Counted from the first letter of the stretch, positions 25,946-40,175 are shown. The stretch is DNA of 56,430 bases from Candidatus Omnitrophota bacterium (GCA_023134705.1 JAGLUN010000011.1:1-56430), one strand, 5' to 3'. Notes: generated by a model from the sequence alone, not told the origin. A program made the numbers and translations.

Positions 25946-26398
25946 TTACTCTATTTATAAAAAATTTTCTCCGCCAGACAAGATAAAGCTTAGCTCAATT
26001 GAGCAAAAAGTTATTGTCGGCAGCCGGAAAGATGATACTATAAGAATAGTATTTGGACGGTTGACTATTTAATAAAAAATGTTTGTCGTGATTAAAACAT
26101 GCTGGGAAAAGAATATTTTCGAATTTTAGCCCCTTTTACAACCATAAGGAGCAATCTAAATATTCTAATTCCGACAGATAATGAAGCTACTTGGGCTTGT
26201 GTCCGCGGTTTCCTGAGTACCGCTCCTTAAGGAACGAAATCCCTACCCGCTTCCATCCCCGGTAAATCCGCAGTAAAGTGGCGCTGGTGCTATTATGCAA
26301 CAGTCTCAAAGTACATTCTATTGCATTTTGCACTGGATATTCAAAAGGATTTAGGCGGGATTCACTGAATATTTACTTTCCTCCTTCCTTCCTATAGT

Positions 26399-26417
26399 GG
26401 GGTTTGACCCCTTTTTT
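26399..26417 (+). terminator. Weak candidate intrinsic terminator (plus strand)
   Basis: GGGGT-TTG-ACCCC followed by TTTTTT. The stem is only 5 bp. It closes an ORF-free ~530-nt region. Confidence 0.3.
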
Positions 26418-26478
26418 CTTATCTCTTTAATCATTATAGTTTGACAATTTAACCGTTTACTGATTTGCCGCATCTCTT

Positions 26479-28236
26479 TTAACCTGCTTTTTGTTTCGCC
26501 TGCCCCGAGAACAAATGAAAAAATTCTTTATTATTATTGACTAAATTTAGCGCATTATCTATTATTATTTCACCTCTATTTGCGAAAAAATAGACCGATT
26601 CCGCGCACATAACCGTAGATAGGCGGTGAGATACGACAATCAAAGTCATTCTTTTATTATATAACTTCGTATTTACCAATATTTCTTCTTCGCTAGATGA
26701 ATCCATTGACGACATAGCCTCATCAAGAATAAGAATCTTTGGTTTTCTGAGCAATGCCCTGGCAATAGTAATTTTTTGTTTTTGGCCTTCGGAAATTTTA
26801 CAGGCATTCTCGCCGATTAAAGTATTATATCTATTTGGTAAATCGTTAACAAATTTATCTATGGTGCAAATCTTAGCAATTTCTGTTATCTCTTCTATGC
26901 CGGCATCGGCTTTGCCATACCTTATATTATTTTCTATAGTATCATTCCATAAAAACGGCTCTTGTAAAGCTATTCCAATTTGCCCCCTTAAGGAACTAAA
27001 CTTTATCTCTTTTATATTGCATCCATCGATTATAATATCTCCTGACCAGGGGTCATATAATCTCAAGAGCAGATTTAATATTGTTGTTTTGCCGCATCCT
27101 GAAGGCCCGGCCAGGGCAATATGAGAACCGCCGTCTATGTTAAAATCGATAGCGGATAATACAGGCTCTCCCTGTTTATATCCAAAACTAACATCTCTGA
27201 ATACTATCCCGCCTTTTTTGAATATTGCGCTCCTGGCATTTTTTTTCTCCACTATTTTGGGGCGTTGAGCCAGGATTTGTTCTACGCGCCGGCAAGACAC
27301 CAATCCCAAGGCTATATTTTGAAAGAATCCGGCAAAACTACTCTGCAAACCGATTAACTGGCCTATATAAAGCATTATTGCCGTTAAACTGCCCAAGGTC
27401 ATTTGCCCTTTTATCACCTGATAACCTCCATAAAAGGAAATTAACCCGATAACTACCTTGTTAACCGCACTCCCGGCAAAACCGCTTATAACCTCTAATC
27501 TTGTATTCTTGAGGCTCATTCTTATATTAGCTATTTTTCTCCTTAAATAATCCCTTGTCTCAGCCCCCTCCTTGGCAAATGCCTTAACCAATTGGATGTG
27601 GGAAAAAACCTCATTTAGCCGCTTAAAGATATCTTCGGAATTCCTGATTAAATCTTCCCAGACTCTTCTCATCCTTTTGGTAAAATAATAAGGCGGCAGA
27701 TATAGAAGCGGAGCAAGGCAAAGAGAAAAAACAGCCATTTGCCAGTTAAGGCGCAGGACAATAATCAGAATAAACAATAGCTTGGGAAAGGTAGCAATAA
27801 CCTGAGGCGGGGTTGTGGTTATAAAATCAGCAACTCTATCTATATCATAACTGCTCCTATAAAGATGCTCCCCCGTAGATTTATTCTGAAAGTAATTCAG
27901 GTCAAGTTTTTCTAAATGCTTGAAAACCCGCTTATTCAAATCAAAGTTCACCTTAATCTTTATCTGCCTATCCAGATAATTCTTCAGCCCGCTCACCAAC
28001 CCACTTAAGACAAAGATAACTCCTCCGATTAAAGCCAGAATGATAAAAACCCTTAAATTCTTATTGCCAAAGGCCCTGTCTATAACCAACTTGGTAAGAT
28101 AGGGATTCACCAGACCCAAAAGAACCCCTATCCCGCTTAAGCCGACTATTACCCCCTCCTTTTTCCAGTAAGACAGAAGATGCTTAGTAAATTTCAGGAA
28201 TAGCTTAAACTGAGTTTTGTCTAATATATTCTTCAT
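26479..28236 (-). CDS. ABC exporter, fused transmembrane + ATPase (MsbA/bacteriocin-exporter type, no peptidase domain)
   Basis: 585 aa. The N-terminal six-helix TMD is followed by GPSGCGKTT (Walker A), ISEGQKQKITIARAL (signature-like) and ILILDEAMSSMD (Walker B). Confidence 0.85.
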   Translation of the reverse strand: MKNILDKTQFKLFLKFTKHLLSYWKKEGVIVGLSGIGVLLGLVNPYLTKLVIDRAFGNKNLRVFIILALIGGVIFVLSGLVSGLKNYLDRQIKIKVNFDLNKRVFKHLEKLDLNYFQNKSTGEHLYRSSYDIDRVADFITTTPPQVIATFPKLLFILIIVLRLNWQMAVFSLCLAPLLYLPPYYFTKRMRRVWEDLIRNSEDIFKRLNEVFSHIQLVKAFAKEGAETRDYLRRKIANIRMSLKNTRLEVISGFAGSAVNKVVIGLISFYGGYQVIKGQMTLGSLTAIMLYIGQLIGLQSSFAGFFQNIALGLVSCRRVEQILAQRPKIVEKKNARSAIFKKGGIVFRDVSFGYKQGEPVLSAIDFNIDGGSHIALAGPSGCGKTTILNLLLRLYDPWSGDIIIDGCNIKEIKFSSLRGQIGIALQEPFLWNDTIENNIRYGKADAGIEEITEIAKICTIDKFVNDLPNRYNTLIGENACKISEGQKQKITIARALLRKPKILILDEAMSSMDSSSEEEILVNTKLYNKRMTLIVVSHRLSTVMCAESVYFFANRGEIIIDNALNLVNNNKEFFHLFSGQAKQKAG

Positions 28237-28314
28237 TGTTAAATTGTTTCAGCCAAAGGTTGATCCGCTTGGCGGGCCTCTGGCGGAAAATTGCTGAATG
28301 CCACATTGTTACAT

Positions 28315-28716
28315 TCAAACTGTTTCGCAATTAAGGCGAAACAGTTTGTGATTCTTTTTTTTAACAAGCCTATAAAAATAGAATGTTTTAAATCCTGCCA
28401 GATCCATTCCTTGATTTGTTCTTAAAAGTTTAGTTTTTTGAGGATGCAATTGGAGTTTAAGGCGTTCCAATAAGAAATCCTTTATTCTTTTATGAGAATT
28501 GGCTATTTTTTTATAAGATCTGTCCAAAACAACAAAATCGTCACAATACCTTAGATAAAATTTCTTCCTTAAGTTATGTTTTACAAAATAGTCCAGTTCA
28601 TTCAGATAAATATTGGCAAAGAGCTGTGAAACAGAACTACCCACGGCTATACCCTTACTTCCGGAACAAAAAGAAAGCATCTTTTCTATCAGCTTTATTA
28701 CCCTTCCATATTCCAA
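28315..28716 (-). pseudogene. N-terminally truncated reverse transcriptase, DGR-like (motifs 4-7 and thumb only)
   Basis: GIAVGSSVSQLFANIYLNELDYFVK has SQ where group II RTs have SP. RYCDDFVVL is the YxDD box, and LQLHPQKTKL follows. The frame is closed 4 codons upstream of the TTG start, and only ~37 nt separate it from the P1 stop, so motifs 1-3 are absent. Confidence 0.6.
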
Positions 28717-28753
28717 ATAACCAAATTATCAAATCTCCAAAAAACAAAAGGGC

Positions 28754-29017
28754 TTAGGAGGCTGTTAGGTTTGGTAGCGGGTTCCAAGAGGGAAGAATTT
28801 TGGCTGGGCCATACCCATTCAGCACCTTCGTCCCATGCTGATCATAACCACAAATACGTCCGAGCTCCGGGCTCGTACCCACCCAGTACCTCCATGCTAC
28901 GTGTGATTGGCTTTGGAACACCCTGCCCGTGCTCCAGCAGTTACACGATAACACCGCCTGCTCAGGGTTGAGTTTTACCCGCGTAATCTTGGGTCTGAAT
29001 TTTGGTTTTCTTCCCAT
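28754..29017 (-). CDS. Precursor peptide P1 (87 aa): conserved leader, hypervariable core
   Basis: SD GGGAGGT lies 8 nt before ATG 29017 (the track ORF starts 9 codons earlier). Translation: MGRKPKFRPKITRVKLNPEQAVLSCNCWSTGRVF...NLTAS. The leader is shared with P2 and P3. Confidence 0.7.
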   Translation of the reverse strand: MGRKPKFRPKITRVKLNPEQAVLSCNCWSTGRVFQSQSHVAWRYWVGTSPELGRICGYDQHGTKVLNGYGPAKILPSWNPLPNLTAS

Positions 29018-29037
29018 AATTTGATACCTCCCTTCTT

Positions 29038-29135
29038 GTATCACGTATCAAGTATCAAGTATCAAGTATCAAGTATCAGGTATCACGTTTTACCTGTTAC
29101 TTGTTACCTGCGGCGTGTTGCGCATTCGCGCTTAC
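29038..29135. repeat. Heptanucleotide tandem-repeat array (GTATCAN x7, then degenerate NTGTTAC-type heptamers)
   Basis: Read directly: gtatcac, gtatcaa x4, gtatcag, gtatcac, gttttac, ctgttac, ttgttac, ctgcggc, gtgttgc, gcattcg, cgcttac. The array spans the HprK-like stop and encodes its last ~11 codons. Confidence 0.9.
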
Positions 29136-30062
29136 TCTTCTCACAAAATCAATAACTTTTCTATCATTCACAAACCCCAGGCTATAACAGGGCACAGTTT
29201 TAACCAAATCCTGGCAAAAGGAAATTATATTTTCTAAACATCCTTTATCCCAGAAGGTAGGAAAGAGCGCCGGATAAAGTAGATTGAATGCCCTCTTTCG
29301 CGAAATCTGTCTTATTGTATTTTTAGGCGAATGATGGATAAAAAATAATTTTTCAAGCCGCGCCGATTCGATATGCGACTCTAAATAATCACTAAAATCT
29401 CCATGCCATGGCGCGCCGTAGATAAAGAATTTTTTTTTAAGTTTTCGCACAATAATGCGGTCATCATTCAAAACCATTGCTTTGCTGTGTTTATGCCAGA
29501 GCCTTGCCGTAGTGCTTTTACCTGCCCCGGATTTACCGGCAAAAAGTAATCCCTTGCCGTTTAAATCCTTCACTCCGATAGAATGAGTAAAAATACCTTG
29601 TTTATTCAAAGCAAAATAATTTATCAATAGAACCTGCAAAAAGTCATAGATGATATCCGAAGTATTCCATACCTTTCCTTTTTGTTTTTTTGGCAGAAGA
29701 TAAGCGGTTACCCGGTCAAAAGCCTTGTTTACCAGCATCGCTTGTTTTTTATCCTCAAGCGGGCTTTTGTAAACATAGCTCTTGCCTCTCTTAAGCAAGC
29801 GCCAGTTCTCACTTCCATCCTGAAAGTGATAGGTAATAAATACCGGCTTTGTTTTTTTGATTTCGGGTAATTTATCAACTATCTCTACATTAACTAAAAT
29901 ATGCGGAGTTTGCCTGCCTTTATAAAAAAAATTATCAAATCGTTCGCCCGCCTGCGCTCTTTCTTCTTCTTTAGTAAACTGCTCAAGAGGAAAGCGGCTT
30001 TTCATCTGAATAATTGTATCAGCAATCCTTAATTTAACTACCACATTATTACCTTGCTTCAT
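29097..30062 (-). CDS. HPr-kinase-related P-loop kinase-like protein (locus II)
   Basis: LLFAGKSGAGKSTTARL P-loop, LNDDRIIVRK and GAPWHGDF. ATG 30062 (MKQGNNVVVKL) is preceded by AAGGAG and matches the start of the pseudogene copy. The track start at 30167 is likely too long. Confidence 0.75.
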   Translation of the reverse strand: MKQGNNVVVKLRIADTIIQMKSRFPLEQFTKEEERAQAGERFDNFFYKGRQTPHILVNVEIVDKLPEIKKTKPVFITYHFQDGSENWRLLKRGKSYVYKSPLEDKKQAMLVNKAFDRVTAYLLPKKQKGKVWNTSDIIYDFLQVLLINYFALNKQGIFTHSIGVKDLNGKGLLFAGKSGAGKSTTARLWHKHSKAMVLNDDRIIVRKLKKKFFIYGAPWHGDFSDYLESHIESARLEKLFFIHHSPKNTIRQISRKRAFNLLYPALFPTFWDKGCLENIISFCQDLVKTVPCYSLGFVNDRKVIDFVRRVSANAQHAAGNK

Positions 30063-30196
30063 TGCTTCTCCTTTTAAATTAGTTGCCTTCGGCAATAATT
30101 TATCATATGAAAACCTGCGGTTTTCAAACTTTCCCCTAAAATCCTTAAGATTGAAATTCCTAAACATGAACTTAGTGCGCCTAACGGCGCGGGCTT

Positions 30197-30373
30197 TTAG
30201 TTAGGAGAACATTTCATTCGATCATTACATTCGGGGCAAGTGAACGTAGGACTTTCACCTTCTTTACACCCCTGAGAATGAAAATAGGCATCAAAGACGA
30301 TATCTTCGACTTCTGTTTCGTATTCACATGAAACACATTTGTACCTGTACCATTGACTCTTCCCGCCAAACAT
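30197..30373 (-). CDS. Small zinc-ribbon-like protein (58 aa, below the ORF-track cutoff)
   Basis: AAGAGGA lies 5 nt before the ATG. Translation: MFGGKSQWYRYKCVSCEYETEVEDIVFDAYFHSQGCKEGESPTFTCPECNDRMKCSPN, with two CxxC pairs. Confidence 0.5.
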   Translation of the reverse strand: MFGGKSQWYRYKCVSCEYETEVEDIVFDAYFHSQGCKEGESPTFTCPECNDRMKCSPN

Positions 30374-30597
30374 TTTCGTCCTCTTTTTTGCTCAAAGGAG
30401 GCGGTAGCCCTTTTTCTTTTTTGCCTGGGTCAGAAATCCGTAGATATCGAACATCGTAGGCGTTTTTCTCTCACTTTACGCCTTAGGTTTCAAGCCTCAC
30501 GCTTTTGGCGCGCAGCCTGAAGCGTACACGACGTATTCACGGGTATTCGCGTCTAACCCAATCAACAAATTCCCAAATCTCCAAAAAACAAAAGGGT

Positions 30598-30852
30598 TTA
30601 GGAGGATGACTGGCTACCACTGAGGTTATAACCGCGGTAATGCCTGTATGGTCCAATCCATTTTAGCTGTAGCTTACCCATGCACTGTGCCTGGGGTCCA
30701 GGCGTGGTTTGTCGTAGCCATCCAGTATCGCGACTGCTGCCTAGCCAGATTGGTTTCGTACCTCCTTGGTAACAGTCGCAGGTTAACACCGCCTGCTCAG
30801 GGTTGAGTTTTACCCGCGTAATCTTGGGCTTGAATTTTGGTTTTCTTCCCAT
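30598..30852 (-). CDS. Precursor peptide P2 (84 aa): same leader as P1, unrelated core
   Basis: SD GGGAGGT precedes ATG 30852. Translation: MGRKPKFKPKITRVKLNPEQAVLTCDCYQGGTKPIW...GSQSSS. Confidence 0.7.
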   Translation of the reverse strand: MGRKPKFKPKITRVKLNPEQAVLTCDCYQGGTKPIWLGSSRDTGWLRQTTPGPQAQCMGKLQLKWIGPYRHYRGYNLSGSQSSS

Positions 30853-30872
30853 AATTTGATACCTCCCTTCTT

Positions 30873-30956
30873 GTATCAAGTATCAAGTATCAGGTATCAG
30901 GTATCAGGTTTTACCTGTTACGTGTTACCTGCGACGTGTTGCTCATTCGCGCTTAC
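30873..30956. repeat. Heptanucleotide tandem-repeat array, second copy with different unit counts
   Basis: gtatcaa x2, gtatcag x3, gttttac, ctgttac, gtgttac, ctgcgac, gtgttgc, tcattcg, cgcttac. Confidence 0.9.
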
Positions 30957-31246
30957 TCTTCTCACAAAATCAATAACTTTTCTATCATTCACAAACCCCA
31001 AGCTATAACAGGGCACAGTTTTAACCAAATCCTGGCAAAAGGAAATTATATTTTCTAAACACCCCTTATCCCAGAAGGTAGGAAAAAGCGCCGGATAAAG
31101 TAGATTGAATGCCCTCTTTCGCAAAATCTTTCTTACTGTATTTTTTCTTCTTCTTTAGTAAACTGCTCAAGAGGAAAGCGGCTTTTCATCTGGATAATTA
31201 TGTCTGCAATCCTTAGTTTAATTGTTACATTGTTACATTGTTTCAT
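30918..31246 (-). pseudogene. HPr-kinase-related gene remnant with a large internal deletion
   Basis: 31140-31246 matches 29955-30062 (MKQCNNVTIKLRIADIIIQMKSRFPLEQFTKEEE). 30918-31140 matches 29097-29320 (RKRAFNLLYPALFPTFWDKGCLENIISF...). The junction is out of frame and the P-loop region is missing. Confidence 0.8.
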
Positions 31247-31313
31247 TGTTTCTTCTTTTTTAGCCATTTAACAATTTAACCATTTAGCAGTTTGCCAGTT
31301 TAACGGTTTTTTT
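31221..31313. repeat. Octanucleotide tandem-repeat arrays (CATTGTTA-type, then CCATTTAA/CAGTTTAA-type)
   Basis: cattgtta cattgtta cattgttt cattgttt ... ccatttaa caatttaa ccatttag cagtttgc cagtttaa. The second array encodes the VKLANC tail of rSAM A. Confidence 0.85.
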
Positions 31314-32363
31314 CGCCAACTCACAAAACCACTCAACAGGCTCTTCTAAGCTTCCCGTTTCCAACAATGCCTTGCCTGGACAATTATAGCATAAATCCCT
31401 TATTGAACAATTCTTACATTTAGAATCGGTAATAAATCTTCTGCTCCTTACCCAGTTTAAAATACTTTTTTGTGCTTCTTCGATACTTTTTTCAAATAAA
31501 TTTATTTTAGGCCCTCTGATACAATTACAAGGTATAACATTCCCATAAGGGTCAATATGAATCCCGTCTCCGCCGCCAATAGCACAAGGAAATAACCTGC
31601 TGTTCGGTGTTCGGTTTTCGGTTATCGGTTTTTGGGGTTCAGTATTCAGGGATAACTGACAATCGTTATCTAAGGGTTGTTTATTTCCATCTAGATTTAA
31701 AATCTCCTCGGGAGAGATTCTTAAACTACAGGGCCTTAAATCCCCATTAAGCCGGGCATGAAGGAACGCGCTTGGCCTAAAACTTAACCCTAAATTTTCC
31801 ACAAACTCCTTTATTTTCGGCAATTCCTCTAAATTATCCTTGATCACCTGTGTTTTTATCTTTAAAGGTAATTTATTCTGTGTTATCAGCTTTATGCCAT
31901 CCATTGCTTTTTCAAAAGAACCCTTTACCCGGGATATCTCTTCATAGGTTTCCTTCGTAACTGCATTAAGGGTAATCTCGATGACAAAAGGAGGTTGCTT
32001 TTTCAGATACCCGGCAATCTCTTCAGTCATTGAACAGCCGTTAGTAAATATTGTTATTATAAACCCTTTATCTTTAGCATAAGAGTAAAACTCCAAAAAA
32101 TCCGGCCGCGTTAAAGGGTCTCCTCCTGTCCAACAAAGCCAGATTACCCCTGCATTATATATCTTATCAAGTAGGAATTTCACCTGGCCGGTACTTAGCT
32201 CACCTTTTATGTATTCTTGTTTATTATAACAATCTGAATAGCAATGCCTGCAATGAAGGCCGCATTTAAAAGTTAACTCAAACTGGCATACATTCGGCTT
32301 TTTGATTCGCCAGTTCTTCTTGTGAGTTTTGAGGCTAAAAGTTCTGTATTGAAGTTCTTTCAT
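31284..32363 (-). CDS. Radical SAM/SPASM maturase A (locus II)
   Basis: ELTFKCGLHCRHCY, WTGGDPL, and SPASM CAIGGGDGIHIDPYGNVIPC...KCKNCSIRDLCYNCPG. The start is set at ATG 32363 (MKELQY); the track GTG at 32399 lies in a repeat array. Confidence 0.85.
   Translation of the reverse strand: MKELQYRTFSLKTHKKNWRIKKPNVCQFELTFKCGLHCRHCYSDCYNKQEYIKGELSTGQVKFLLDKIYNAGVIWLCWTGGDPLTRPDFLEFYSYAKDKGFIITIFTNGCSMTEEIAGYLKKQPPFVIEITLNAVTKETYEEISRVKGSFEKAMDGIKLITQNKLPLKIKTQVIKDNLEELPKIKEFVENLGLSFRPSAFLHARLNGDLRPCSLRISPEEILNLDGNKQPLDNDCQLSLNTEPQKPITENRTPNSRLFPCAIGGGDGIHIDPYGNVIPCNCIRGPKINLFEKSIEEAQKSILNWVRSRRFITDSKCKNCSIRDLCYNCPGKALLETGSLEEPVEWFCELAKKTVKLANC
31601..31636. repeat. Intragenic heptamer-repeat element inside rSAM A
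   Basis: tgttcgg tgttcgg ttttcgg ttatcgg tttttgg, translated in frame as ...PITENRTPNSR.... Confidence 0.75.
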
Positions 32364-32434
32364 GATAATACGTAGCACGTCACAGGCATCAGGTATCACG
32401 CTTCAAGCTTCGCGCTTTTGACGTGCAGCGTGCA

Positions 32435-32467
32435 GCCATTTAACAGTCTAACAGTTTAACAATTGCC
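32435..32467. repeat. Octamer repeat array at the rSAM B 3' end
   Basis: gccatttaacagtctaacagtttaacaattgcc encodes the ...QLLNC tail and stop. Confidence 0.75.
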
Positions 32468-33560
32468 TTCTCTCTTCCGCCCTCCCGCGGCTTTCAGGTA
32501 CACAGGAAGTAAAAGTCCTGCTATGAAGCCAAGCTTTTGCCGGACACCACTTACAATAGGGCTCAAACTCACACCTATCGCACTGGTAATTTTCATCCGG
32601 CTTAATATTCTTCACTAAGTCTTTTAACTTTTCCCACGCGCTTTTCAGGCTCGGTGTTCGGTGTTCGTTTTTTTCCGATAACCGATAACCGATAACCGAT
32701 AACCCGCTTTCAGCTTTGTCTTCTGTCAGTATTTTATACTTAGGATAATCAATCATAAGACACATCTTTAACTCTCCAAAGGGAGTGATTGCAGCTTGAG
32801 TTTTGCCTACTCCGCATTTGAATAGGTTTTCGGTTTTGGGTGTTCGGTTTTCGATTTCTTCCGATAACCGACAATCGATAACCGATAACCGACTCTGTCC
32901 TCTGTTATTTGCCATCCGGCCTCTGTATTTATACGGCTCTTTTGACCCATTTAACCGGGGCGAAAGCGTATCATCCAAACGGTGCAGGGCGCCTAAGGAA
33001 ACAGCAAAATCCTGTATCTCTTTTATTTCAGATTCATTTTCTTTTAAAACGCAGGTCTTGAATCCCAATTCAACTCTTCTTTTATACAATAAATCAATAG
33101 CTTTAAAGATCCTCTTGTGCGAATTAGGCGCCCGGGTAATTTTCTCAAGAGCCTTTTTGCTCATCGCCGGAATAGTAATATCTACCTTGTTTGGCCTCAA
33201 AGTAGCTAATTCATCAGCTATTTCTTCATTTATCAACGAACCGTTGGTATAAATAATAACCTCAAATCCCTTTTTCTTAGCATAGCGGAATATCTCCATT
33301 ATGTCTTTCCTTAGAAATGGCTCACCGCCGGTAAAGCCTAAATAAAAACAGCCAATATCAGCAAGCTGTCCTAAAATAGAAAAAACCTCTTTTGTCTTAA
33401 GCTCTCCTGCTTTTCTTCGGTAACTTAAGGGCACATAACAATGCTTACAATAAAAATTGCACTGGTAGGTTAATTCAAACATCACCCGCAAAGGAAAGCC
33501 TCTATTTTTAGCGGATTTGTGTATTCGCTGCCAAAAATTATGATAAGACTGAGTTTTCAT
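32448..33560 (-). CDS. Radical SAM/SPASM maturase B (locus II)
   Basis: ELTYQCNFYCKHCY, FTGGEPF, and SPASM CGVGKTQAAITPFGELKMC...QCDRCEFEPYCKWCPA. It contains two in-frame repeat-element insertions. Confidence 0.85.
   Translation of the reverse strand: MKTQSYHNFWQRIHKSAKNRGFPLRVMFELTYQCNFYCKHCYVPLSYRRKAGELKTKEVFSILGQLADIGCFYLGFTGGEPFLRKDIMEIFRYAKKKGFEVIIYTNGSLINEEIADELATLRPNKVDITIPAMSKKALEKITRAPNSHKRIFKAIDLLYKRRVELGFKTCVLKENESEIKEIQDFAVSLGALHRLDDTLSPRLNGSKEPYKYRGRMANNRGQSRLSVIDCRLSEEIENRTPKTENLFKCGVGKTQAAITPFGELKMCLMIDYPKYKILTEDKAESGLSVIGYRLSEKNEHRTPSLKSAWEKLKDLVKNIKPDENYQCDRCEFEPYCKWCPAKAWLHSRTFTSCVPESRGRAEERRQLLNC
32651..32705. repeat. Intragenic imperfect-hairpin heptamer element 1 in rSAM B
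   Basis: (tcggtgt)x2-tcg-ttttttt-(ccgataa)x4-cc. It is translated in frame as GLSVIGYRLSEKNEHRTPS. Confidence 0.85.
32826..32892. repeat. Intragenic imperfect-hairpin heptamer element 2 in rSAM B
   Basis: gttttcggttttgggtgttcggttttcg-atttctt-ccgataaccgacaatcgataaccgataaccg. It is translated in frame as SRLSVIDCRLSEEIENRTPKTEN. Confidence 0.85.
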
Positions 33561-33578
33561 TGCTAAATTGCTACGTTG

Positions 33579-33953
33579 CTATATTGATAATCTCTCATTA
33601 GTGAATTTAATAAGTGAATTAATTTCCTTGGGTAATTTCTTCAATTCTTCAGAGATATGTTGATATTCCTTTTCTTTTAATAAACCTCTTTTATTTGCTT
33701 TCTCAGTCCAATCAAAAGATTCCTTTATTGAACCATAACTATAACGATAGAAATTAACCTTATCTTTCTTAAAATATCTACCGAAACCCTCAGCAATATT
33801 AGCCGAAATAGAATCAACGGCTTTAACTAACTGTTTACCTACTGTATCTTTTACAAAATAATTCCACTTATTTACGATATTCCAAACATAGTTGGATAAA
33901 TCAAAGGCAATCCTATAAGCACTTATGTCTTCCAGTTCCAAATATTTCTTCAT
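33579..33953 (-). CDS. Four-helix-bundle protein (23S rRNA intervening-sequence protein family; the same family as DGR Avd)
   Basis: 124 aa. YRIAFDLSNYVWNIV, QLVKAVDSISANIAEGFGR, FYRYSYGSIKE and a closing helix. This is the pattern I recognise for the four-helix-bundle family. Confidence 0.65.
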   Translation of the reverse strand: MKKYLELEDISAYRIAFDLSNYVWNIVNKWNYFVKDTVGKQLVKAVDSISANIAEGFGRYFKKDKVNFYRYSYGSIKESFDWTEKANKRGLLKEKEYQHISEELKKLPKEINSLIKFTNERLSI

Positions 33954-33956
33954 CTC

Positions 33957-34001
33957 AACAGTTTAACAGTTTAGCGATTTAACAGTTTAACAATTTAACT
34001 C
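33957..34001. repeat. Octamer tandem-repeat array (AACAGTTT x5, degenerate)
   Basis: aacagttt aacagttt agcgattt aacagttt aacaattt aac. It covers the rSAM C stop and its ...VKLLNC tail. Confidence 0.9.
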
Positions 34002-35127
34002 CCATCTGTTCCGCTGTTGCTTTAGCCAACTCGCAAAAATAAGGAACCGGCGCTTCTTCATCACCAGTCTCCAAAAAGGCTCTTGCCGGGCAGTGATAGC
34101 AGATCGGCCTTAAAGAACAGTCTTTACATTTTGAGCCAGTCTTAAATTTCTCATTTAAAAGTTGAGGGAATACGTTGTAGAAACCTTCTCTGAAAGGCTG
34201 CTTTTTTAAATCCACGCTAAACTTCTCAGAAAATTGGCAAAATTTAAGCCTACCGTAGGGATTGATAAAAAACTGCGTAAACCAGGCATTACAACGATAA
34301 AGAAACTCTTTGTCCCTTCCTAAATCAGGAAACTTGCCGCAAAGACCTCTTTCATATTCCTGCCAAATCTCAGGGTCTGACTTCTTAGATTCTAATAATT
34401 CTCCTGGAGAAAGCCTGTAATCGCAGGGGGTTGTATCGCCATTAAGCCGTGCGTATATCATCGGGTCGTATTTGAATCTCCATGTTTTATTGCCCTTGCC
34501 CCGTGAGATAGGCGTAGCCTTCATCTCATGGGGCTTGCCTAAAAGCTTATCGGTAAAGGCTTTTATTCTGACAATTTCATCTTTGTTTTGCTTTAAGCAG
34601 TTTGATTTTAAAATTAAAGGGAGTTTTCTAACGGTGAGCTCCTTTATTACAGACATAACCCTTTTAAAAGAACCTTTTACCTGAGTTATTCTCTCATAAA
34701 CAGGCTCAGTTATGCCGTTGAGGGTAATTTCTATAGATTCCGGCGGAGATTTCTCAAGATAATCTACAATCTTTCCTGTAAGAAGTAAGCCATTGGTAAA
34801 TATGGTTATGACAAAACCTTTTTTTTTGGCATAAGAATAAATCTCTAAAAAATCATCTCTTAATAAAGGCTCTCCGCCGGTAAAACAAAGCCATAGGCAG
34901 CCCTGCTTATGAATTTCATCAAGAATTTCCTCCCACTCCCGGGTTGTCAATTCTTGATTCCCGGTATTCGGCGTGCAGCGTGAAGCGTATTCCTCAATTC
35001 CCTTACAATAACAATGAACGCAATTAAGATTACAGCGGTAGGTAAGCTCAACCTGTCCTTTCCAGGGATAATGTTCCTTTTTGCCATATAATTTGTTATA
35101 AAAACGCCCTGAACTAATGTTTTTCAT
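33979..35127 (-). CDS. Radical SAM/SPASM maturase C (locus II)
   Basis: ELTYRCNLNCVHCY, FTGGEPL, and SPASM CNAWFTQFFINPYGRLKFC...KCKDCSLRPICYHCPA. An in-frame repeat insertion lies at 34961-34993 (YASRCTPNTGNQ). Confidence 0.85.
   Translation of the reverse strand: MKNISSGRFYNKLYGKKEHYPWKGQVELTYRCNLNCVHCYCKGIEEYASRCTPNTGNQELTTREWEEILDEIHKQGCLWLCFTGGEPLLRDDFLEIYSYAKKKGFVITIFTNGLLLTGKIVDYLEKSPPESIEITLNGITEPVYERITQVKGSFKRVMSVIKELTVRKLPLILKSNCLKQNKDEIVRIKAFTDKLLGKPHEMKATPISRGKGNKTWRFKYDPMIYARLNGDTTPCDYRLSPGELLESKKSDPEIWQEYERGLCGKFPDLGRDKEFLYRCNAWFTQFFINPYGRLKFCQFSEKFSVDLKKQPFREGFYNVFPQLLNEKFKTGSKCKDCSLRPICYHCPARAFLETGDEEAPVPYFCELAKATAEQMGVKLLNC
34961..34993. repeat. Intragenic heptamer-type repeat inside rSAM C
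   Basis: ccggtattcggcgtgcagcgtgaagcgtattcc. Paralogs A and B lack the corresponding ~12 residues. Confidence 0.65.
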
Positions 35128-35176
35128 TGTTCGTTTTGCTCGTTATGCCCATTGTTAAATTGTTATATTGCTTCAT

Positions 35177-35205
35177 TGCTAAATTGCCACACAAACAATT
35201 TAGCA
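35177..35205 (-). promoter_or_regulatory. Intercistronic stem-loop between P3 and rSAM C
   Basis: tgctaaattg (35177-35186) pairs perfectly with caatttagca (35196-35205), with a 9-nt loop. No clear U-run follows on the minus strand. Confidence 0.45.
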
Positions 35206-35310
35206 GTTTAACAGTAGTTAAATCCAAAGGGGCTCAGGAGGAAACAGTTTCTTGTCTGAAAAAATCAGTAGTAATAATATTTTTATTCCTGCACACTGTC
35301 TCATCATAGC

Positions 35311-35427
35311 CTATATAAGCCTCCCCTGTACCCAGCCTGTGTCATAGCATGAACAGAACAACACCGCCTGCTTAGGGTTGAGTCGGATCCATGTTATCCT
35401 TGGTCTGAATTTTGGTTTTCTTCCCAT
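35311..35427 (-). CDS. Precursor paralog P3 (38 aa; probably decayed)
   Basis: SD GGAGGTG lies 7 nt before ATG 35427. Translation: MGRKPKFRPRITWIRLNPKQAVLFCSCYDTGWVQGRLI, then TAG. The frame stays open beyond the TAG. The conserved 3' block is mutated (cct cct gag instead of tcc tcc taa), so the terminal Ser and stop are lost. Confidence 0.45.
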   Translation of the reverse strand: MGRKPKFRPRITWIRLNPKQAVLFCSCYDTGWVQGRLI

Positions 35428-35546
35428 AATTTAGCACCTCCGCTCTTTTGCCTAGCGCGTATTACCTATTGCAACGTGTAGCATGCTGCGTGCAGCAGTT
35501 TATTTTACCCTTTTCCTTATTAAACTGCCTCATTGATAAATTGCCC

Positions 35547-35891
35547 TTAATGATTTCTTCGCGCAGCATAATTGAAATGATCAAAATATTTCCGCCACAA
35601 TACCTCTGTAGACGAAAACTCATTTTTACCATAGAAATAATCTACAATGGCTTCTCTTACCCGCGCAATTTCTTTGTAACGCGGAAAGGTTTTAACAGAA
35701 GCTAAGGTCATATCAATTAATTCTAATGCTCTACATACAGCTTTTTGGCTATATTCATTGTTCCCCTTTTTTAGCCAATTTAACGACCGGCTGATTTCAC
35801 TTCCAATATTTGCCATTTGCTCAAGAAAAGGCATTTGATTCCACCGCCCCAAAGCAAGGCCTTTATGTTGAAGTCTCATCTTTGCACCCAT
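35547..35891 (-). CDS. Hypothetical helical protein (paired with the DUF5674-like gene)
   Basis: 114-aa ORF with a 16-nt overlap with the upstream gene. I recognise no motif. Confidence 0.5.
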   Translation of the reverse strand: MGAKMRLQHKGLALGRWNQMPFLEQMANIGSEISRSLNWLKKGNNEYSQKAVCRALELIDMTLASVKTFPRYKEIARVREAIVDYFYGKNEFSSTEVLWRKYFDHFNYAARRNH

Positions 35892-36217
35892 TTGTTAACA
35901 ACCTTAATAATCTTTTTGCGTAATTCTTCATCATCAATGCCTCTGCTCATATTTCCTTGTGAAGGACGTATATTAATCATAGAATCAAACTCAAGAAAAT
36001 CTTCCCCCTTTAAATCAGGATAAAAATTAATTCCCCAAAGGCATTTTTGTTGGGAACCATCTTCAAAAAACAATGCCTCTAAGTCAGAATGTAATTCCGC
36101 ATCAAGAGCAACTAATTCTCGCTCTATATCCACTACAGCTTTCACTAAATCACCAAATGTATCTGCTGCCATCTTTTTCAATTCATCAATTGTAACAATT
36201 TTATCTAATATCTTCAT
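35876..36217 (-). CDS. DUF5674-like protein
   Basis: FGDLVKAVVDIERELVALDAELHSDLEALFFEDGSQQKCLWGINFYPD matches my recollection of DUF5674. This needs an HMM check. Confidence 0.5.
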   Translation of the reverse strand: MKILDKIVTIDELKKMAADTFGDLVKAVVDIERELVALDAELHSDLEALFFEDGSQQKCLWGINFYPDLKGEDFLEFDSMINIRPSQGNMSRGIDDEELRKKIIKVVNKWVQR

Positions 36218-36275
36218 AGTATCTGCGAACTTTAACTCCTCAAAAATATGCTGATATTCTTCTTACTTTACCCGC

Positions 36276-36542
36276 CTAACTTTTTGGATGTCCTTGAAAA
36301 TAATTCCTTAAGACTCTTTCAATATAATTTCTTCCCCAGCCAGTCTTTAAAAATTTTTCTCTTACCATGGCATCTTTTCTATCTCTATAAGCTTCATAAC
36401 AAATCAAGATAAATGGCCTACGCCCCTTAGTGGAAAAGGATAGTCCATCATTATGTTCTTTTAGCCTTTTTCGTAAATCAACAGTAAAACCTATATACAA
36501 TTTTTTGTCTTTAAGGCTTTGAAGTATATAGACATAATACAT
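36276..36542 (-). CDS. GIY-YIG nuclease-superfamily protein
   Basis: MYYVYILQSLKDKKLYIGFTVDLRKRLKEHN contains the GIY-YIG motifs. The track start at 36614 reads through a heptamer repeat array, so I chose ATG 36542. Confidence 0.75.
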   Translation of the reverse strand: MYYVYILQSLKDKKLYIGFTVDLRKRLKEHNDGLSFSTKGRRPFILICYEAYRDRKDAMVREKFLKTGWGRNYIERVLRNYFQGHPKS

Positions 36543-36626
36543 ATCCAAAAAGTTGAGCGGGTTGCCTGGGCCCGAAATCCGTACAGCGTATAGCGTGCTG
36601 CGTGCAGTGTGCAACGTGTTACCAAC

Positions 36627-36932
36627 CTAAACAACTGCCTTTATCTCCTTTAAATCCTTCAGGAAATCCTGCATCTCTTTATCTACCTCTCCGGAATTAG
36701 TATCAAACTCCTTTAAAACCTTGCTTTTAATCTCCCCAAGGCTTCTTTTACCATTAATCAATTCCCAGATCCTTGAGGCAACCTTGTTTAAGGTATAGAT
36801 ACAGTTTATCTCCTCGGAAGTTTTATAAATCGGCATAAGAATAGTCTCATTATCAATTGTTCGTGCCACCATATCCTTGTTTTTGCGTAAAACCATAGTT
36901 TCTCTCATGGGGTTATTCCTCCTTCTTACCAA
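36627..36932 (-). CDS. PqqD-family protein (locus II)
   Basis: IYTLNKVASRIWELINGKRSLGEIKSKVLKEFD...EVDKEMQDFLKDLKE. Confidence 0.75.
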   Translation of the reverse strand: MVRRRNNPMRETMVLRKNKDMVARTIDNETILMPIYKTSEEINCIYTLNKVASRIWELINGKRSLGEIKSKVLKEFDTNSGEVDKEMQDFLKDLKEIKAVV

Positions 36933-36979
36933 GCACTGTCAAAACTATTTACCCTTTATGTGCTTAAAAACTCTAAATC

Positions 36980-38515
36980 CTAAGTGTTTAGGATTTTTCC
37001 CCTGTGTGATATATTGTTATATTGCTGTATTGTTAAACAATTTAGCAATCTATCCAGGCCCGCCATCTTCTTCTCAATCTTCTGTAAACCTTTAAGCTTC
37101 CTGCCTTTTTTCAAACTTAATCTCTTGGCTCTTTCAAAATCCTTTTTAAACTCCTTGTATCTTATAGAAACGTATTTAGTTATATCATCTTTTGCCTTTA
37201 GATGGCAGCAAATTTTTAGAAGCCTTTTAATTACATCTATATTACTTAGCCCCAGTCTCATTGCATCCTGATAAAAAACTGCTGCCTTTTCAAAATCTTT
37301 CTCCCTCTCATAAATCTGCCCTAAAAGATAACGGTTCTTGGGCTGCATTGGCTCAAAGGGTTGATAACTAAGAAATAACTTCTTAGCTTTCTTAAACTTC
37401 TTCAATCCTAACTCTGCCTGTGCCAATCCCAATAAAGATTGTTTCAATTCTGTCTTTAGTTTTAAGGCATAGGAAAAATGCCTTTTTGCCTTATAAAAAT
37501 TCCTTTTTTCTAAAGCGATATTACCCAGACCAATAAAAGGATAAGGATTTTCAGGGTCAACCCGGGTAACCTTCAAGAATTCCCTTTTGGCTTTGGAAAA
37601 TCTGCGAATATTTAAATAAAGAGGCCCATAATTATTATCCGCTGCCCGATAGGAGGGATCAAGCCTTATTGCTTTTTGGTAATATTCCTTTTTGCCGGTT
37701 GATGCAAAGCGCTCAAAAAAGACAGAGGCAATAAACTTTTGCCCATAGCGTTCTTTAAAATGTTTTGGCGACAAGCGGTAAGCTAATTCATCCCCCAAGA
37801 TTTTATAGCGCATTGGCGTCCAGCCGCCATTTACAGAATAGGCAATGGTGGTCCAAACCGGCTTGAGCTCCTTCTTGCTAAGCAAATCCTTTACCAATCT
37901 ATCAGGCCTAATCCAACGTTTCCTTTTACCTATTTTAGCCGTATTACTTGCGTTTAAAAGGCTGTCCACAATTAGGAAGTCAGTATCAATATCTAACAAG
38001 ACCTTTTGTTTTAGAATCGGCAGTTTTTCTAATGTGCATATAACAAATTTTCTTCCCAAGAGTTTAGTTGAGACTATCCCATCTTGAAACGTATGACGTG
38101 TAACGTGTAACGTGTGACCTAATTGGCAAGGGTCATGTCTTGAGAAACTCTTGAGCATACCTTTTATAATTTTGAGCGACTTCTTAAATTCCTTTAATCT
38201 TCCTGGAATAACCCAGTAAAGATCCTTGACGATACCCTCGCGCATTGCCGGATAGATATAATTTCCGATATTAGTCTGCTTATCAAAATCTTTCTGATAT
38301 CTCTGATACAAAAGAGACTTTTCCAATTCCCGCTTCAGTTGATTTAACGTCCTTGCTTCATTCATTATCTGCTCTTTCGGCTTTGCCGGATGAAAGCCAA
38401 AATCAATATGAGCATCGATATGGACGAGATCCACGCCTTTAAAACCTTTCTCCCTCCAGATTTTTAGCGCCTCATGATGATCTTCAATAAGGGATATTTT
38501 GTTTGTCATCTTCAC
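36980..38515 (-). CDS. UPF0489-like N-terminal domain fused to TPR repeats
   Basis: IEDHHEALKIWREKG...LVHIDAHIDF at the N-terminus. The C-terminal half has several TPR-like units (YYQKAIRLDPSY..., GLGNIALEKRNFYKAKRHF...). It contains an in-frame heptamer repeat at 38089-38119. Confidence 0.6.
   Translation of the reverse strand: MKMTNKISLIEDHHEALKIWREKGFKGVDLVHIDAHIDFGFHPAKPKEQIMNEARTLNQLKRELEKSLLYQRYQKDFDKQTNIGNYIYPAMREGIVKDLYWVIPGRLKEFKKSLKIIKGMLKSFSRHDPCQLGHTLHVTRHTFQDGIVSTKLLGRKFVICTLEKLPILKQKVLLDIDTDFLIVDSLLNASNTAKIGKRKRWIRPDRLVKDLLSKKELKPVWTTIAYSVNGGWTPMRYKILGDELAYRLSPKHFKERYGQKFIASVFFERFASTGKKEYYQKAIRLDPSYRAADNNYGPLYLNIRRFSKAKREFLKVTRVDPENPYPFIGLGNIALEKRNFYKAKRHFSYALKLKTELKQSLLGLAQAELGLKKFKKAKKLFLSYQPFEPMQPKNRYLLGQIYEREKDFEKAAVFYQDAMRLGLSNIDVIKRLLKICCHLKAKDDITKYVSIRYKEFKKDFERAKRLSLKKGRKLKGLQKIEKKMAGLDRLLNCLTIQQYNNISHRGKILNT
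38089..38119. repeat. Intragenic heptamer repeat (ACGTGTA x3-4)
   Basis: acgtatg acgtgta acgtgta acgtgtg acc, translated in frame as GHTLHVTRHTF. Confidence 0.8.
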
Positions 38516-38660
38516 CTAATAACTCCGATAAGATGTGTGTTAATCTGACTAAAAAGAGAACCTTTCAGCAATATTCCATAAGGGGAAAATGGAAGAGGAA
38601 AAAGAGTATGTAATGAAATAATCTCAAACCCGGCTTTTAAACAGCTAATTTTGAATTCTT

Positions 38661-39098
38661 TTATTTTCCTTTATTTTCCAACTTATCTATAAACCCATCG
38701 GCTTGTTTTATATACCCGTTATAATCTTGAGCCGCCAAAAAAATGGCGTTGTAGACTTTTTCATCATCTATATCCATATATTCATGGACTAAGATATTTC
38801 TCATCCCTGCCGAACCTTTAAGTTTTTCCGCCAATTCCCTTGATATCAAACCTACATCCACGGCTCTTATAAATGAGACACTATAATCCTCTGGCGGCCT
38901 ATTTCCTGTCTCCATCACAACATGATTATTTATGTCTATAGCTCATTCTCCGATTAATTGAATAAGCCGCTCTGTAGCTGACTTTAAATAAAAGTCGGTT
39001 TTATATTCTTCCAGACTCTTTTGGGAAATAGGTTTTAACTTCTCTAAATACATATTCAAACGTGATAACTTTCTTCTAATCAATTCAATATCAATCAT
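38661..39098 (-). pseudogene. hepT: HepT-like (DUF86) toxin interrupted by an in-frame TGA
   Basis: ATG 39098 opens MIDIELIRRKLSRLNMYLEKLKPISQKSLEEYKTDFYLKSATERLIQLIGE. TGA follows at 38943-38945, then AIDINNHVVMETG...GMRNILVHEYMDID (the Rx4HxY motif) in the same frame. I checked this codon by codon. Confidence 0.7.
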
Positions 39099-39101
39099 AT
39101 T

Positions 39102-39539
39102 TCATCTCATCCTTTTTATTGCTGATTTAATATACTGTTTCTCCAATATCCTGAATTTTCCTGTATCTTGATATCTTGCCAATGCACCTAACCTAAAGGA
39201 ATTAAACAGGCCTCGGTTCTTTTCATACAAAGGTATACCATTTATGGCTACATGATAGGTAATCATTGCTTCAGCGCCATTTAAAAATACAGGGTCAAAT
39301 TTATCGCCAAAAATTGAAACAAAATCTCTCAATATGTCAAAATATTTTTCTTTAATTATATTAGAGTCCCCCAACAACCCTATATCTATATCACTTTTAG
39401 CTGTAGCGGCATTTTTAGCATACGAACCATGTAAAACTACTAGAAATAAATTATACTTCCGGCATATTCTATAAAGATCTTCTTTAACCCGCAGTAAAAT
39501 TTTGCTATTACAGGATTTATTGTAATCAAAAACATCCAT
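39102..39539 (-). CDS. mntA: MntA-type nucleotidyltransferase antitoxin
   Basis: VVLHGSYAKNAATAKSDIDIGLL is the GSx10DxD minimal nucleotidyltransferase motif. Its stop lies 3 nt before the HepT-like ATG. Confidence 0.75.
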   Translation of the reverse strand: MDVFDYNKSCNSKILLRVKEDLYRICRKYNLFLVVLHGSYAKNAATAKSDIDIGLLGDSNIIKEKYFDILRDFVSIFGDKFDPVFLNGAEAMITYHVAINGIPLYEKNRGLFNSFRLGALARYQDTGKFRILEKQYIKSAIKRMR

Positions 39540-39665
39540 ACGTTCCTCTCTTTCATACCCTTTATTAAACTGCTACATTGTTAAACTGCTTATATTTTGT
39601 AGCGGCGTATTTAATTATATCATCTTTTGTCGTAAGGTGCCAAAAGGTTTTTAGAAGCCTTCGTT

Positions 39666-40175
39666 TCATGTTTTATGTAACGCCCTCTTAATAATTCTAC
39701 TCCCTATCCCGAACAAAGGACCAACTACTACAATAAGCTGATTAACAAAATTGCTCCGTCTCCCTGCAAGGCTTATAATATGGCCGTTTCTCAAAACACC
39801 TGTAACTTTACCCACAAGCAATTCCTCTGCCACTGGCTCACCTGAACTCAAATTATTATCCCCGCGGGCATAAAGCAAACACCCTCCTTTATTCTTGATT
39901 ATCTTTACCAGTCGGTGACAGACTATCTGATTCTCTGCCCGGTAGAGAATAATATCGCCAACCCTTAAGCTTCCTGCGGCAACCTTTTTAACCACTACCC
40001 TCTCTCCTGTCTTGAGAAATGGCCACATACTAAAACCAACAGCTTTAATAAGGATTAAATCCCCATATTCCTGCTTTAAGTGAATATCGTTATCTCTCTG
40101 CATCGCCTTCAATTTTAAATATATGAATTGCCGCAAGGCCGTTGGGATAATAAATGGTTTTAATCGCTGTTGCAT
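39666..40175 (-). CDS. S24/S26-family serine peptidase-like protein, paralog 2
   Basis: VGFSMWPFL, VGDIILY, CHRLV and RGDNN boxes, as in 14138-14629. Confidence 0.6.
   Translation of the reverse strand: MQQRLKPFIIPTALRQFIYLKLKAMQRDNDIHLKQEYGDLILIKAVGFSMWPFLKTGERVVVKKVAAGSLRVGDIILYRAENQIVCHRLVKIIKNKGGCLLYARGDNNLSSGEPVAEELLVGKVTGVLRNGHIISLAGRRSNFVNQLIVVVGPLFGIGSRIIKRALHKT

Follow-up and report, generated by a model that had tools for sequence, protein, structure and literature searches.

Three radical SAM/SPASM enzymes with a probable role in one conserved peptide-maturation pathway of Omnitrophota

The analysed window is a stretch of 56,430 nucleotides from Candidatus Omnitrophota bacterium (GCA_023134705.1 JAGLUN010000011.1:1-56430; scaffold_143 of the metagenome ENA ERZ23498525), in which three neighbouring genes on the minus strand, rsA, rsB and rsC, encode radical SAM/SPASM enzymes. 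Considered as a whole, the results are best explained by rsA, rsB and rsC being non-redundant maturases of one conserved pathway for a peptide made on the ribosome and modified after translation (RiPP), and we regard this explanation as likely. A first-pass annotation of the same DNA had proposed that the three maturases serve one precursor family. The comparison with related loci supports this, since the enzymes form separate conserved clades, recur with a single PqqD and one precursor family in 10 or more other genomes, have no recognition domain of their own, and have peptide maturases as their closest solved relatives. The gene cluster reaches far past the three enzyme genes and spans at least 26.5-42 kb of the window (~16 kb). 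It is broken by small selfish insertions and is conserved across Omnitrophota.

The three enzymes and their orthologs

The rsC gene (33979-35127, minus strand), which is transcribed first of the three, encodes a protein of 382 aa and matches the Pfam Radical_SAM model (PF04055; gathering score 29.5 bits) with 82.9 bits. The rsB gene (32448-33560, minus strand; 370 aa, 96.2 bits) is the most divergent paralog. The rsA gene (31284-32363, minus strand; 68.9 bits) encodes 359 aa when read from its ATG. The longest rsA open reading frame (ORF) starts from a GTG at 32399 (31284-32399, 371 aa); as orthologs begin with MKE(L/I)QY, translation probably starts at the ATG at 32363. All three ORFs are intact.

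The CxxxCxxC motif that defines the radical SAM superfamily, together with PF04055 scores above the gathering score, was identified in all three proteins. It reads CGLHCRHC at residue 46 in rsA (residue 34 from the ATG), CNFYCKHC at residue 34 in rsB and CNLNCVHC at residue 32 in rsC. The TGG motif is WTGGDPL in rsA, FTGGEPF in rsB and FTGGEPL in rsC. The cysteines of the auxiliary clusters are arranged as CX12-13GX4C, CX2CX5CX2C and a final Cys, plus a conserved linker Cys, giving eight Cys for two auxiliary clusters in each protein. The published SPASM motif is CX9-15GX4C ... CX2CX5CX3C ... C, with seven Cys and two auxiliary clusters. The ORFs and the motif check thus confirm what the first-pass annotation had claimed, a shared CxxxCxxC, a TGG(E/D)P motif and a full auxiliary Cys set, in three intact radical SAM genes that are predicted to be of the SPASM type. 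The divergence that it saw in the linkers is also present, as the stretch that joins the radical SAM core to the SPASM part is the least conserved region. Its description of the genes as three consecutive ones holds in that they are neighbours but not in the strict sense, since rsB and rsC are separated by a four-helix-bundle gene (33579-33953).

Structural comparison places the enzymes near peptide maturases. The AlphaFold2 model of rsC (pLDDT 66.7, pTM 0.72) has SuiB, PqqE, SkfB and anSME as its best Foldseek matches, with TM scores of 0.56-0.66 for SuiB, PqqE and anSME. Because the model superposes best on these four proteins, rsC is predicted to have a SPASM-group fold. The source annotations of rsC and rsB homologs also describe SPASM proteins. 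In a profile search of the PDB, the thioether synthase SkfB is the best match, and SkfB, PqqE and SuiB rank above BlsE, MoaA and DesII, though GDGT-MAS is third. The window enzymes have the radical SAM core and auxiliary-cluster domain fold in common with SkfB and CteB, which form thioethers, and with PqqE and SuiB, which form C-C links. Identity in the structural alignments is 15-19%, and the window enzymes differ in their final Cys spacing (CX2C). SuiB, CteB and SkfB have N-terminal extensions, whereas rsA, rsB and rsC each have no fused N-terminal recognition domain. The dependence of PqqE on its partner PqqD resembles the stand-alone PqqD arrangement of the window.

In total, 86 related loci (L numbers) were taken from species-representative genomes. 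In a neighbour-joining tree of 156 enzymes, rsA, rsB and rsC fall in three separate clades. Pairwise identity among the three is 33-43%, whereas orthologs of each are 48-69% identical to the window protein (48-65% for rsA). The three are therefore old, separately maintained paralogs and not recent duplicates, which argues against simple redundancy. All three clades occur together with one PqqD, a ScmC-like protein and the same precursor family in L002, L006-L011, L013, L020 and L040, so that at least 10 other species-level genomes hold all three enzymes with a single PqqD and one precursor family. The pairing of a precursor gene with a nearby PqqD gene, which is expected of RiPP maturases, was found in the window and in these genomes, and the wider family comprises ~60 loci.

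Orthologs of rsC were identified in L002-L013, L018, L020 and L040. The usual gene order is arginase-like/TPR protein, PqqD, precursor, rsC, rsB, rsA, ScmC-like protein, precursor and ABC exporter. Database searches retrieved 2430 homologs of rsC, the top 120 of which are at least 59% identical and mostly from Omnitrophota (all those named). For rsB, 681 homologs were retrieved; the top 120 are at least 55% identical, and those named are from Omnitrophota.

Precursor peptides and the proposed pathway

Three precursor genes were identified in the window. Precursor P1 (28754-29017, minus strand; 87 aa) consists of MGRKPKFRPKITRVKLNPEQAVL followed by a core that reads SCNCW...TAS. Precursor P2 (30598-30852, minus strand; 84 aa) has a P1-type leader and another core that ends in SSS. 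P1 and P2 are ~97% identical in the 5' flank and leader, their cores are unalignable, and similarity returns in the last codons and the 3' flank. Precursor P3 (35234-35427, minus strand) is frameshifted, with 38 aa in frame (35311-35427), and its +1 frame runs to ...ETVSS and a stop at 35234. The leader common to P1, P2 and P3 is MGRKPKF(R/K)P(K/R)IT(R/W)(V/I)(K/R)LNP(E/K)QAVL. The frameshift in P3 lies near a G-run (CAGGGGAGG), and the +1 frame restores a family member with the third Cys and a VSS end. Possible explanations for P3 are a pseudogene, an error in the sequencing or a site of slippage.

The precursors belong to a large family that no NCBIfam or Pfam model recognises. P1 has 129 database homologs, all unnamed, and the family statistics given here were taken from 120 of them. 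The consensus leader is MxRKPKFxPxITRVKLNPEQAVL. It is directly followed by xCxC in all 120 homologs, and the core contains 3-4 Cys in 104 of them. The last residue is Ser in 114 homologs and Thr in three. The cores are hypervariable, with a median length of 59 residues. Trp (2.7%) and Tyr (5.2%) are both moderately raised in the cores. The first-pass annotation had called the cores W/Y/C-rich; this is right for Cys, with 3-4 residues and an invariant xCxC, and overstated for the aromatic residues, whose rise is only moderate. A search with the precursor profile among 1.84 billion proteins returned 880 cluster representatives at E <= 0.001. The family comprises at least 670 distinct precursor clusters.

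The presence of three enzymes and three precursor genes in the window, with P3 directly upstream of rsC, is what would be expected if the enzymes were redundant paralogs, or if each acted on its own precursor copy (P1, P2 or P3) with the same type of reaction. We consider this unlikely. Other genomes with all three enzymes contain only one or two precursors, the window has only one PqqD, and P3 is frameshifted there. The enzyme clades are old and conserved, whereas the hypervariable cores share, besides the leader, only the xCxC, the third Cys and the C-terminal Ser. A division of labour with one enzyme per cysteine was also ruled out, as cassettes with a single enzyme also have three-Cys precursors.

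The reading that we favour, non-redundant maturases acting on one precursor family, suggests the following pathway. A stand-alone PqqD-family chaperone, or RiPP recognition element (36627-36908, minus strand; Pfam PqqD 45.4 bits), would bind the leader MxRKPKFxPxITRVKLNPEQAVL and present the peptide to rsC, rsB and rsA. PqqD would serve all three enzymes, none of which has space for an N-terminal recognition domain, their CxxxCxxC motifs starting at residues 32-46. In most loci the PqqD gene adjoins rsC; its matches to the NCBIfam models of lasso PqqD, ScmD and GeoRSP PqqD are all below cut-off. The cross-links placed in the hypervariable core would then differ from enzyme to enzyme. Thioethers from the invariant Cys (xCxC and the third Cys) would be the likeliest chemistry, and the extra paralogs may form non-Cys links. 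Thioethers are the first guess because the Cys are invariant in the cores. Several distinct cross-links on a single peptide, as the first-pass annotation had suggested, are plausible. The only hint of them is that loci with more radical SAM genes have longer cores (medians of 27, 32.5 and 43 aa) while the number of Cys stays near 3, as if the added paralogs acted on non-Cys residues, but this is a rough statistic, derived with a loose regular expression and in part from truncated contigs.

Further steps may be carried out by other products of the cluster. The ScmC-like, HPr-kinase-related P-loop protein (29097-30062, minus strand; PF27840 ScmC in the precomputed annotation) would phosphorylate the C-terminal Ser, as kinases of lasso peptide clusters do, and an NTP_transf_5 nucleotidyltransferase (40713-41903, minus strand; PF14907, 154.6 bits) may extend the phosphate. 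The NCBIfam models HprK_rel_B (E 5e-6) and ScmC (E 9e-6) match the ScmC-like protein below cut-off. The NTP_transf_5 gene lies beside the cassette in ~45 loci. A 511-aa protein with a peptide-arginase-like N-terminal domain (FlmR/OhkR family, UPF0489) and TPR repeats (36980-38515, minus strand; PF12640, 35.4 bits) may convert Arg to ornithine. Orthologs of this protein were identified in at least eight loci, including L004, L008, L009, L013 and L020. A SipW/archaeal-type signal peptidase I (39666-40103, minus strand; TIGR02228, 64.5 bits, above the cut-off of 51.85), which is the only protease candidate in the cluster, would remove the leader, probably just before the first Cys. With V/L at -3 and S, T, A or G at -1, the residues that precede this Cys conform to a type I signal peptidase site. 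By tblastn, the signal peptidase gene lies beside the cassette in more than 50 loci. The product would be exported by ABC transporters. One of these is an ABC exporter with membrane and ATPase domains and no peptidase domain (26479-28236, minus strand), whose orthologs follow the cassette in L002 (67% identity), L009 (72%), L005 and L013.

Several points weigh against this reading. The support for the pathway comes from comparative genomics, namely gene content, motifs, orthology, synteny and precursor features, and the roles of the kinase, arginase and peptidase are proposed by analogy alone. The last SPASM Cys spacing is X2 in rsA, rsB and rsC instead of the canonical X3. The Pfam SPASM model is sub-threshold for rsC (20.4 against 21.5 bits) and unreported for rsA and rsB. 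L005 contains just rsC and rsB within its flanks, from which rsA may be dispensable. None of the three enzymes reaches a curated family cut-off, their best NCBIfam matches being the heme enzymes NirJ2 and AhbD (106-123 bits against 500), and rsB carries a 20-residue insert in its SPASM region that is absent from eight aligned orthologs.

The NirJ2 and AhbD matches, which are the best for all three proteins, and the presence of anSME among the Foldseek matches would be consistent with cofactor- or heme-type SPASM enzymes (NirJ/AhbD-like) that do not act on peptides. We regard this as very improbable. The scores are far below the cut-offs and mostly cover the generic radical SAM half, and no heme d1 or siroheme genes were identified among the annotated ORFs of the window. 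Synteny with PqqD, precursors, peptidase and exporters is kept across phyla, and the PDB profile search ranks peptide maturases first, GDGT-MAS apart. The first-pass annotation had held that clustering with anSME or cofactor maturases would speak against its proposal; no such clustering was obtained at these scores, although the outcome is not decisive. Sactipeptide and ranthipeptide models of NCBIfam were also below cut-off (AlbA 57-69 against 850 bits, StsB 61-86 against 625, PapB 64 against 340, SkfB 54 against 300), and neither NCBIfam, the PDB profile search nor Foldseek yielded a family assignment for rsA, rsB and rsC.

The insert in rsB belongs to a second alternative, in which one or more enzymes, most likely rsB, are inactive or switchable; rsB would be disabled by the insert or turned on and off by slippage. 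The rsB gene contains two in-frame heptamer elements at 32653-32728 and 32839-32914 (also delimited as 32640-32720 and 32822-32914), which share 79% identity and form hairpins when folded (z -2.6 and -3.1). The second of these is the insert. The elements consist of (CGGTTAT)n followed by (CGAAAAC/CGAACAC)n and encode ...LSVI(DC/GY)RLSE..E(N/H)RTP. The run at 32675-32704 is a perfect heptamer repeated 4.3 times, so slippage at this (CGGTTAT)x4 tract could switch rsB off. Both repeat segments are low-confidence loops in the AlphaFold2 model of rsB (pLDDT <50). Against a loss of function, rsB has an unbroken ORF with the insert in frame and retains every cluster Cys. The same site carries inserts of many lengths, from 36 to 83 residues, in 120 rsB homologs and is therefore tolerant of insertion. 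An inactive or switchable enzyme thus appears improbable, somewhat more so than redundancy. A further in-frame element of the (CGGTTAT)n and (CGAAAAC/CGAACAC)n type was observed inside rsA (31598-31680).

Relation to SynChlorMet, lasso peptide and peptide arginase systems

The cluster shares its main components with the SynChlorMet cassette. The PqqD chaperone, the HPr-kinase-like ScmC, the PqqE-like radical SAM/SPASM enzyme and the ABC transporter of SynChlorMet were all matched in the window, where they are co-located. The matches are below the NCBIfam cut-offs of TIGR04248-TIGR04251 (ScmC 25.2 against 125, ScmD 22.8 against 100, ScmE 73-79 against 400, ScmF 58-78 against 400). The window differs from SynChlorMet in its number of enzyme clades (three against two), in cores of far greater length and in the arginase-like/TPR protein. 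The window cluster is a distinct, expanded relative of the SynChlorMet-type cassette. Literature searches on SynChlorMet, Omnitrophota RiPPs and radical SAM with HPr kinase returned no description of the cassette in the library searched.

SynChlorMet-type loci were retrieved as distant relatives of rsC (L049-L087), with the same kind of small precursor ORF. These distant loci have two layouts. The first is a minimal triad of PqqD, radical SAM/SPASM enzyme and ScmC, found in Aminicenantes, Syntrophaceae, Myxococcota, Nitrospirota and others. The second is the classical SynChlorMet order of ScmC, radical SAM, PqqD, radical SAM and ABC. Beside single-enzyme and SCM-type enzymes of many phyla, 50 small ORFs were identified whose products have a basic leader, (Y/W)-x-K-P-x-(I/L)-x-x-V...E-E-A-V-L, contain three Cys and end in GS, AS or SS. 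These 50 similarly built ORFs therefore point to one precursor architecture across the whole cassette family. To our knowledge, the SynChlorMet cassette has been defined only bioinformatically, with its precursor described as unidentified, and no precursor family had previously been reported for it. The family described here is offered as a candidate.

Several features are also shared with lasso peptide clusters. In these clusters, HPr-kinase-like enzymes with a His-Lys-Asp-Asp set phosphorylate the conserved C-terminal Ser of the precursor, and a nucleotidyltransferase-family partner of the kinase then adds sugars (PMC9266682). A PqqD-type leader binder, an HPr-kinase-like protein, a nucleotidyltransferase, a C-terminal Ser and an ABC exporter are common to the window and to the paeninodin and pseudomycoidin clusters (PadeK, ThcoK, PsmK; PsmN; B1) (PMC9266682). 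The window has no lasso cyclase or B2 protease, and radical SAM/SPASM enzymes stand in their place. The features expected of a lasso-type kinase were found, with the His-Lys-Asp-Asp set conserved in ScmC-like homologs and the C-terminal Ser in the precursors. Among 54 homologs of the ScmC-like protein, H195 and K217 are each 100% conserved, D235 96% and D236 89%. From the HPr kinase P-loop context, we infer that this tetrad is equivalent by position to that of the lasso kinases. The cluster thus offers a testable link between the C-terminal Ser kinases of lasso clusters and the SynChlorMet cassette.

The peptide arginases OspR, FlmR and OhkR convert Arg to ornithine in RiPP cores (PMC12703449). 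The FlmR/OhkR family model and PF12640 both match the N-terminal domain of the window protein, weakly. With 40.3 bits, the match to the family model (NF052474) stays below its cut-off of 350, and it covers only the first 163 of 287 model positions, in the N-terminal domain. Unlike the known peptide arginases, the arginase-like domain of the window is fused to TPR repeats, and a PDB search with this protein returned TPR proteins only.

Combined, these comparisons allow a broader but more tentative reading, which we hold to be possible rather than probable. The cluster would represent a new RiPP class, near-universal in Omnitrophota, in which a hypervariable core of 35-75 residues is modified by three different cross-linking enzymes and acquires ornithine and a phosphate-linked modification of the C-terminal Ser by a lasso-type kinase/nucleotidyltransferase pair. 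The missing SynChlorMet precursor would also be supplied. If this is true, the constant flanks of so scrambled a core would speak for diversifying selection, which might act where these very small bacteria interact with hosts or prey.

Radical SAM/SPASM pathways for peptides rank among the chief sources of new peptide chemistry, and those with several enzymes and an identifiable substrate are the easiest to study. The cluster is a defined system of this kind, with enzymes, chaperone, precursors and tailoring genes identified, and it is abundant in an uncultured phylum with thousands of enzyme homologs. It thus provides a well-defined, abundant and experimentally tractable lead for genome mining.

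Tandem repeats, insertions and other genes of the region

Short tandem repeats are frequent in and between the genes of the cluster. Tandem Repeats Finder located arrays with 7- and 8-nt units concentrated at 28.7-38.1 kb, and octamer repeats are enriched (17 matches against 1.6 expected). An octamer array, (TTAAACTG)n, ends rsC (33957-33999, minus strand), and similar arrays lie at the ends of rsB (32441-32461) and rsA (31259-31286). The C-terminal tails KLANC (rsA), QLLNC (rsB) and KLLNC (rsC) overlap these arrays, which confirms the earlier observation that all three proteins end in L(A/L)NC encoded by octamer repeats. Read in its three frames, (TTAAACTG)n gives LNC and a stop, an immediate stop, or KLLNC and a stop. 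As translation stops in every frame, any gene that runs into the array ends in ...LNC or simply stops. The conserved body of rsC homologs ends with ...YYCELAKATAEQM, and the tails beyond it differ. Among 120 rsC homologs, only 5 have an L(L/A)NC end (6 have NC), and an NC end occurs in 12 of 120 rsB homologs. The frame analysis and the variable tails of the homologs rule out LLNC as a functional C-terminal motif; the tail is a by-product of the repeat and has no function. Such repeats call for caution in annotation, as they write protein ends and in-frame loops that can be mistaken for conserved motifs.

The opposite-strand form of (TTAAACTG)n is found ahead of start codons; with the other form it gives inverted repeats. 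Heptamer arrays of (GATACTT/GATACCT)x5-7 were observed at 29038-29085 and 30873-30909, directly upstream of the P1 and P2 ribosome-binding sites, and the ScmC-like protein has its last residues encoded by (CAGGTAA)-type heptamers. In Geobacter metallireducens, multicopy tandem elements with heptamer and octamer units have been described between and inside genes (PMC2700814). Like the window arrays, these have 7- and 8-nt units, occur between or inside genes, sometimes twice per gene, and include octamer sets that form pairs on opposite strands; they have other unit sequences and occur in another phylum (PMC2700814). Dense 7/8-nt arrays with many unit sequences also fill the intergenic regions of unrelated anaerobes with related cassettes, namely L068 (Desulfosarcina variabilis; 24 arrays in 21 kb), L043, L044, L058, L040 and L075. 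In genomes of this kind the arrays are present throughout the locus, so a view of them as a cassette-specific feature is unsupported. They look like a genome-wide phenomenon in those anaerobes.

The gene between rsB and rsC (33579-33953, minus strand) encodes a four-helix-bundle protein of the 23S rRNA intervening sequence (IVS) protein family (TIGR02436, 85.5 bits against a cut-off of 24). Among the related loci it was identified only in L010, at the same place and with 80% identity, and rsC and rsB abut in the other loci. In both cases it lies between inverted octamer arrays of (TTAAACTG)n and its complement (window 33555-34000, L010 11060-11530). The gene looks like an insertion and not a part of the pathway. 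With its arrays it is similar to an IVS ORF within a stem, and it may be small and mobile as a unit.

A reverse transcriptase fragment (28315-28716) and the Avd-like four-helix-bundle gene suggested that the precursors might be diversified by a diversity-generating retroelement. This was ruled out, as the fragment is a 133-aa remnant nearest to group II intron reverse transcriptases and absent from related loci, no pair of template and variable repeats was found, and the four-helix-bundle gene occurs in just one other locus. The remnant retains motifs 4-7 only and lies directly after P1, and the duplicated precursor unit seems to have taken the place of its 5' half.

Remnants of a second ScmC copy were identified at 30918-31246 (minus strand) from the repeats D2 (96%) and D3 (88%) and from ORF translations. 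As read from the sequence, the ScmC-precursor unit has been duplicated in tandem with an internal deletion, leaving the second ScmC as N- and C-terminal fragments and keeping P2. A 58-aa zinc-ribbon ORF (30197-30373) lies between the two ScmC copies and has no homolog in related loci. The conserved gene order is further interrupted at 35547-36614 and 38661-39539 by small genes, namely a GIY-YIG nuclease, DUF5674, an unnamed ORF of 114 aa and an MNT/HepT toxin-antitoxin pair. Beside the toxin-antitoxin insertion, at 39578-39661, 84 nt from the 3' end of the arginase/TPR gene (37143-37226) are present as a copy.

A fused ABC-2 type transporter (23704-25527, minus strand; Pfam ABC_tran and ABC2_membrane) is probably also associated with the cluster. 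Homologs with 37-45% identity to it were identified next to the minimal cassettes of L014, L024, L025, L027 and L034. A module of a GT2 glycosyltransferase, a PMT_2 membrane glycosyltransferase and NTP_transf_5 was observed on both sides of the cluster (40713-44060 and 20031-23405; 97%, 65% and 50% identity), and this two-sided three-gene module hints that glycosylation is linked to the pathway. An Rfam scan of the window gave no match. The G+C content is 0.36-0.40 at 26000-40000 and 0.32-0.36 in the rest of the window, and nearly all clear, high-scoring 7/8-nt arrays fall within 26000-40000. The higher G+C content and the concentration of arrays suggest that this region may have a separate history.

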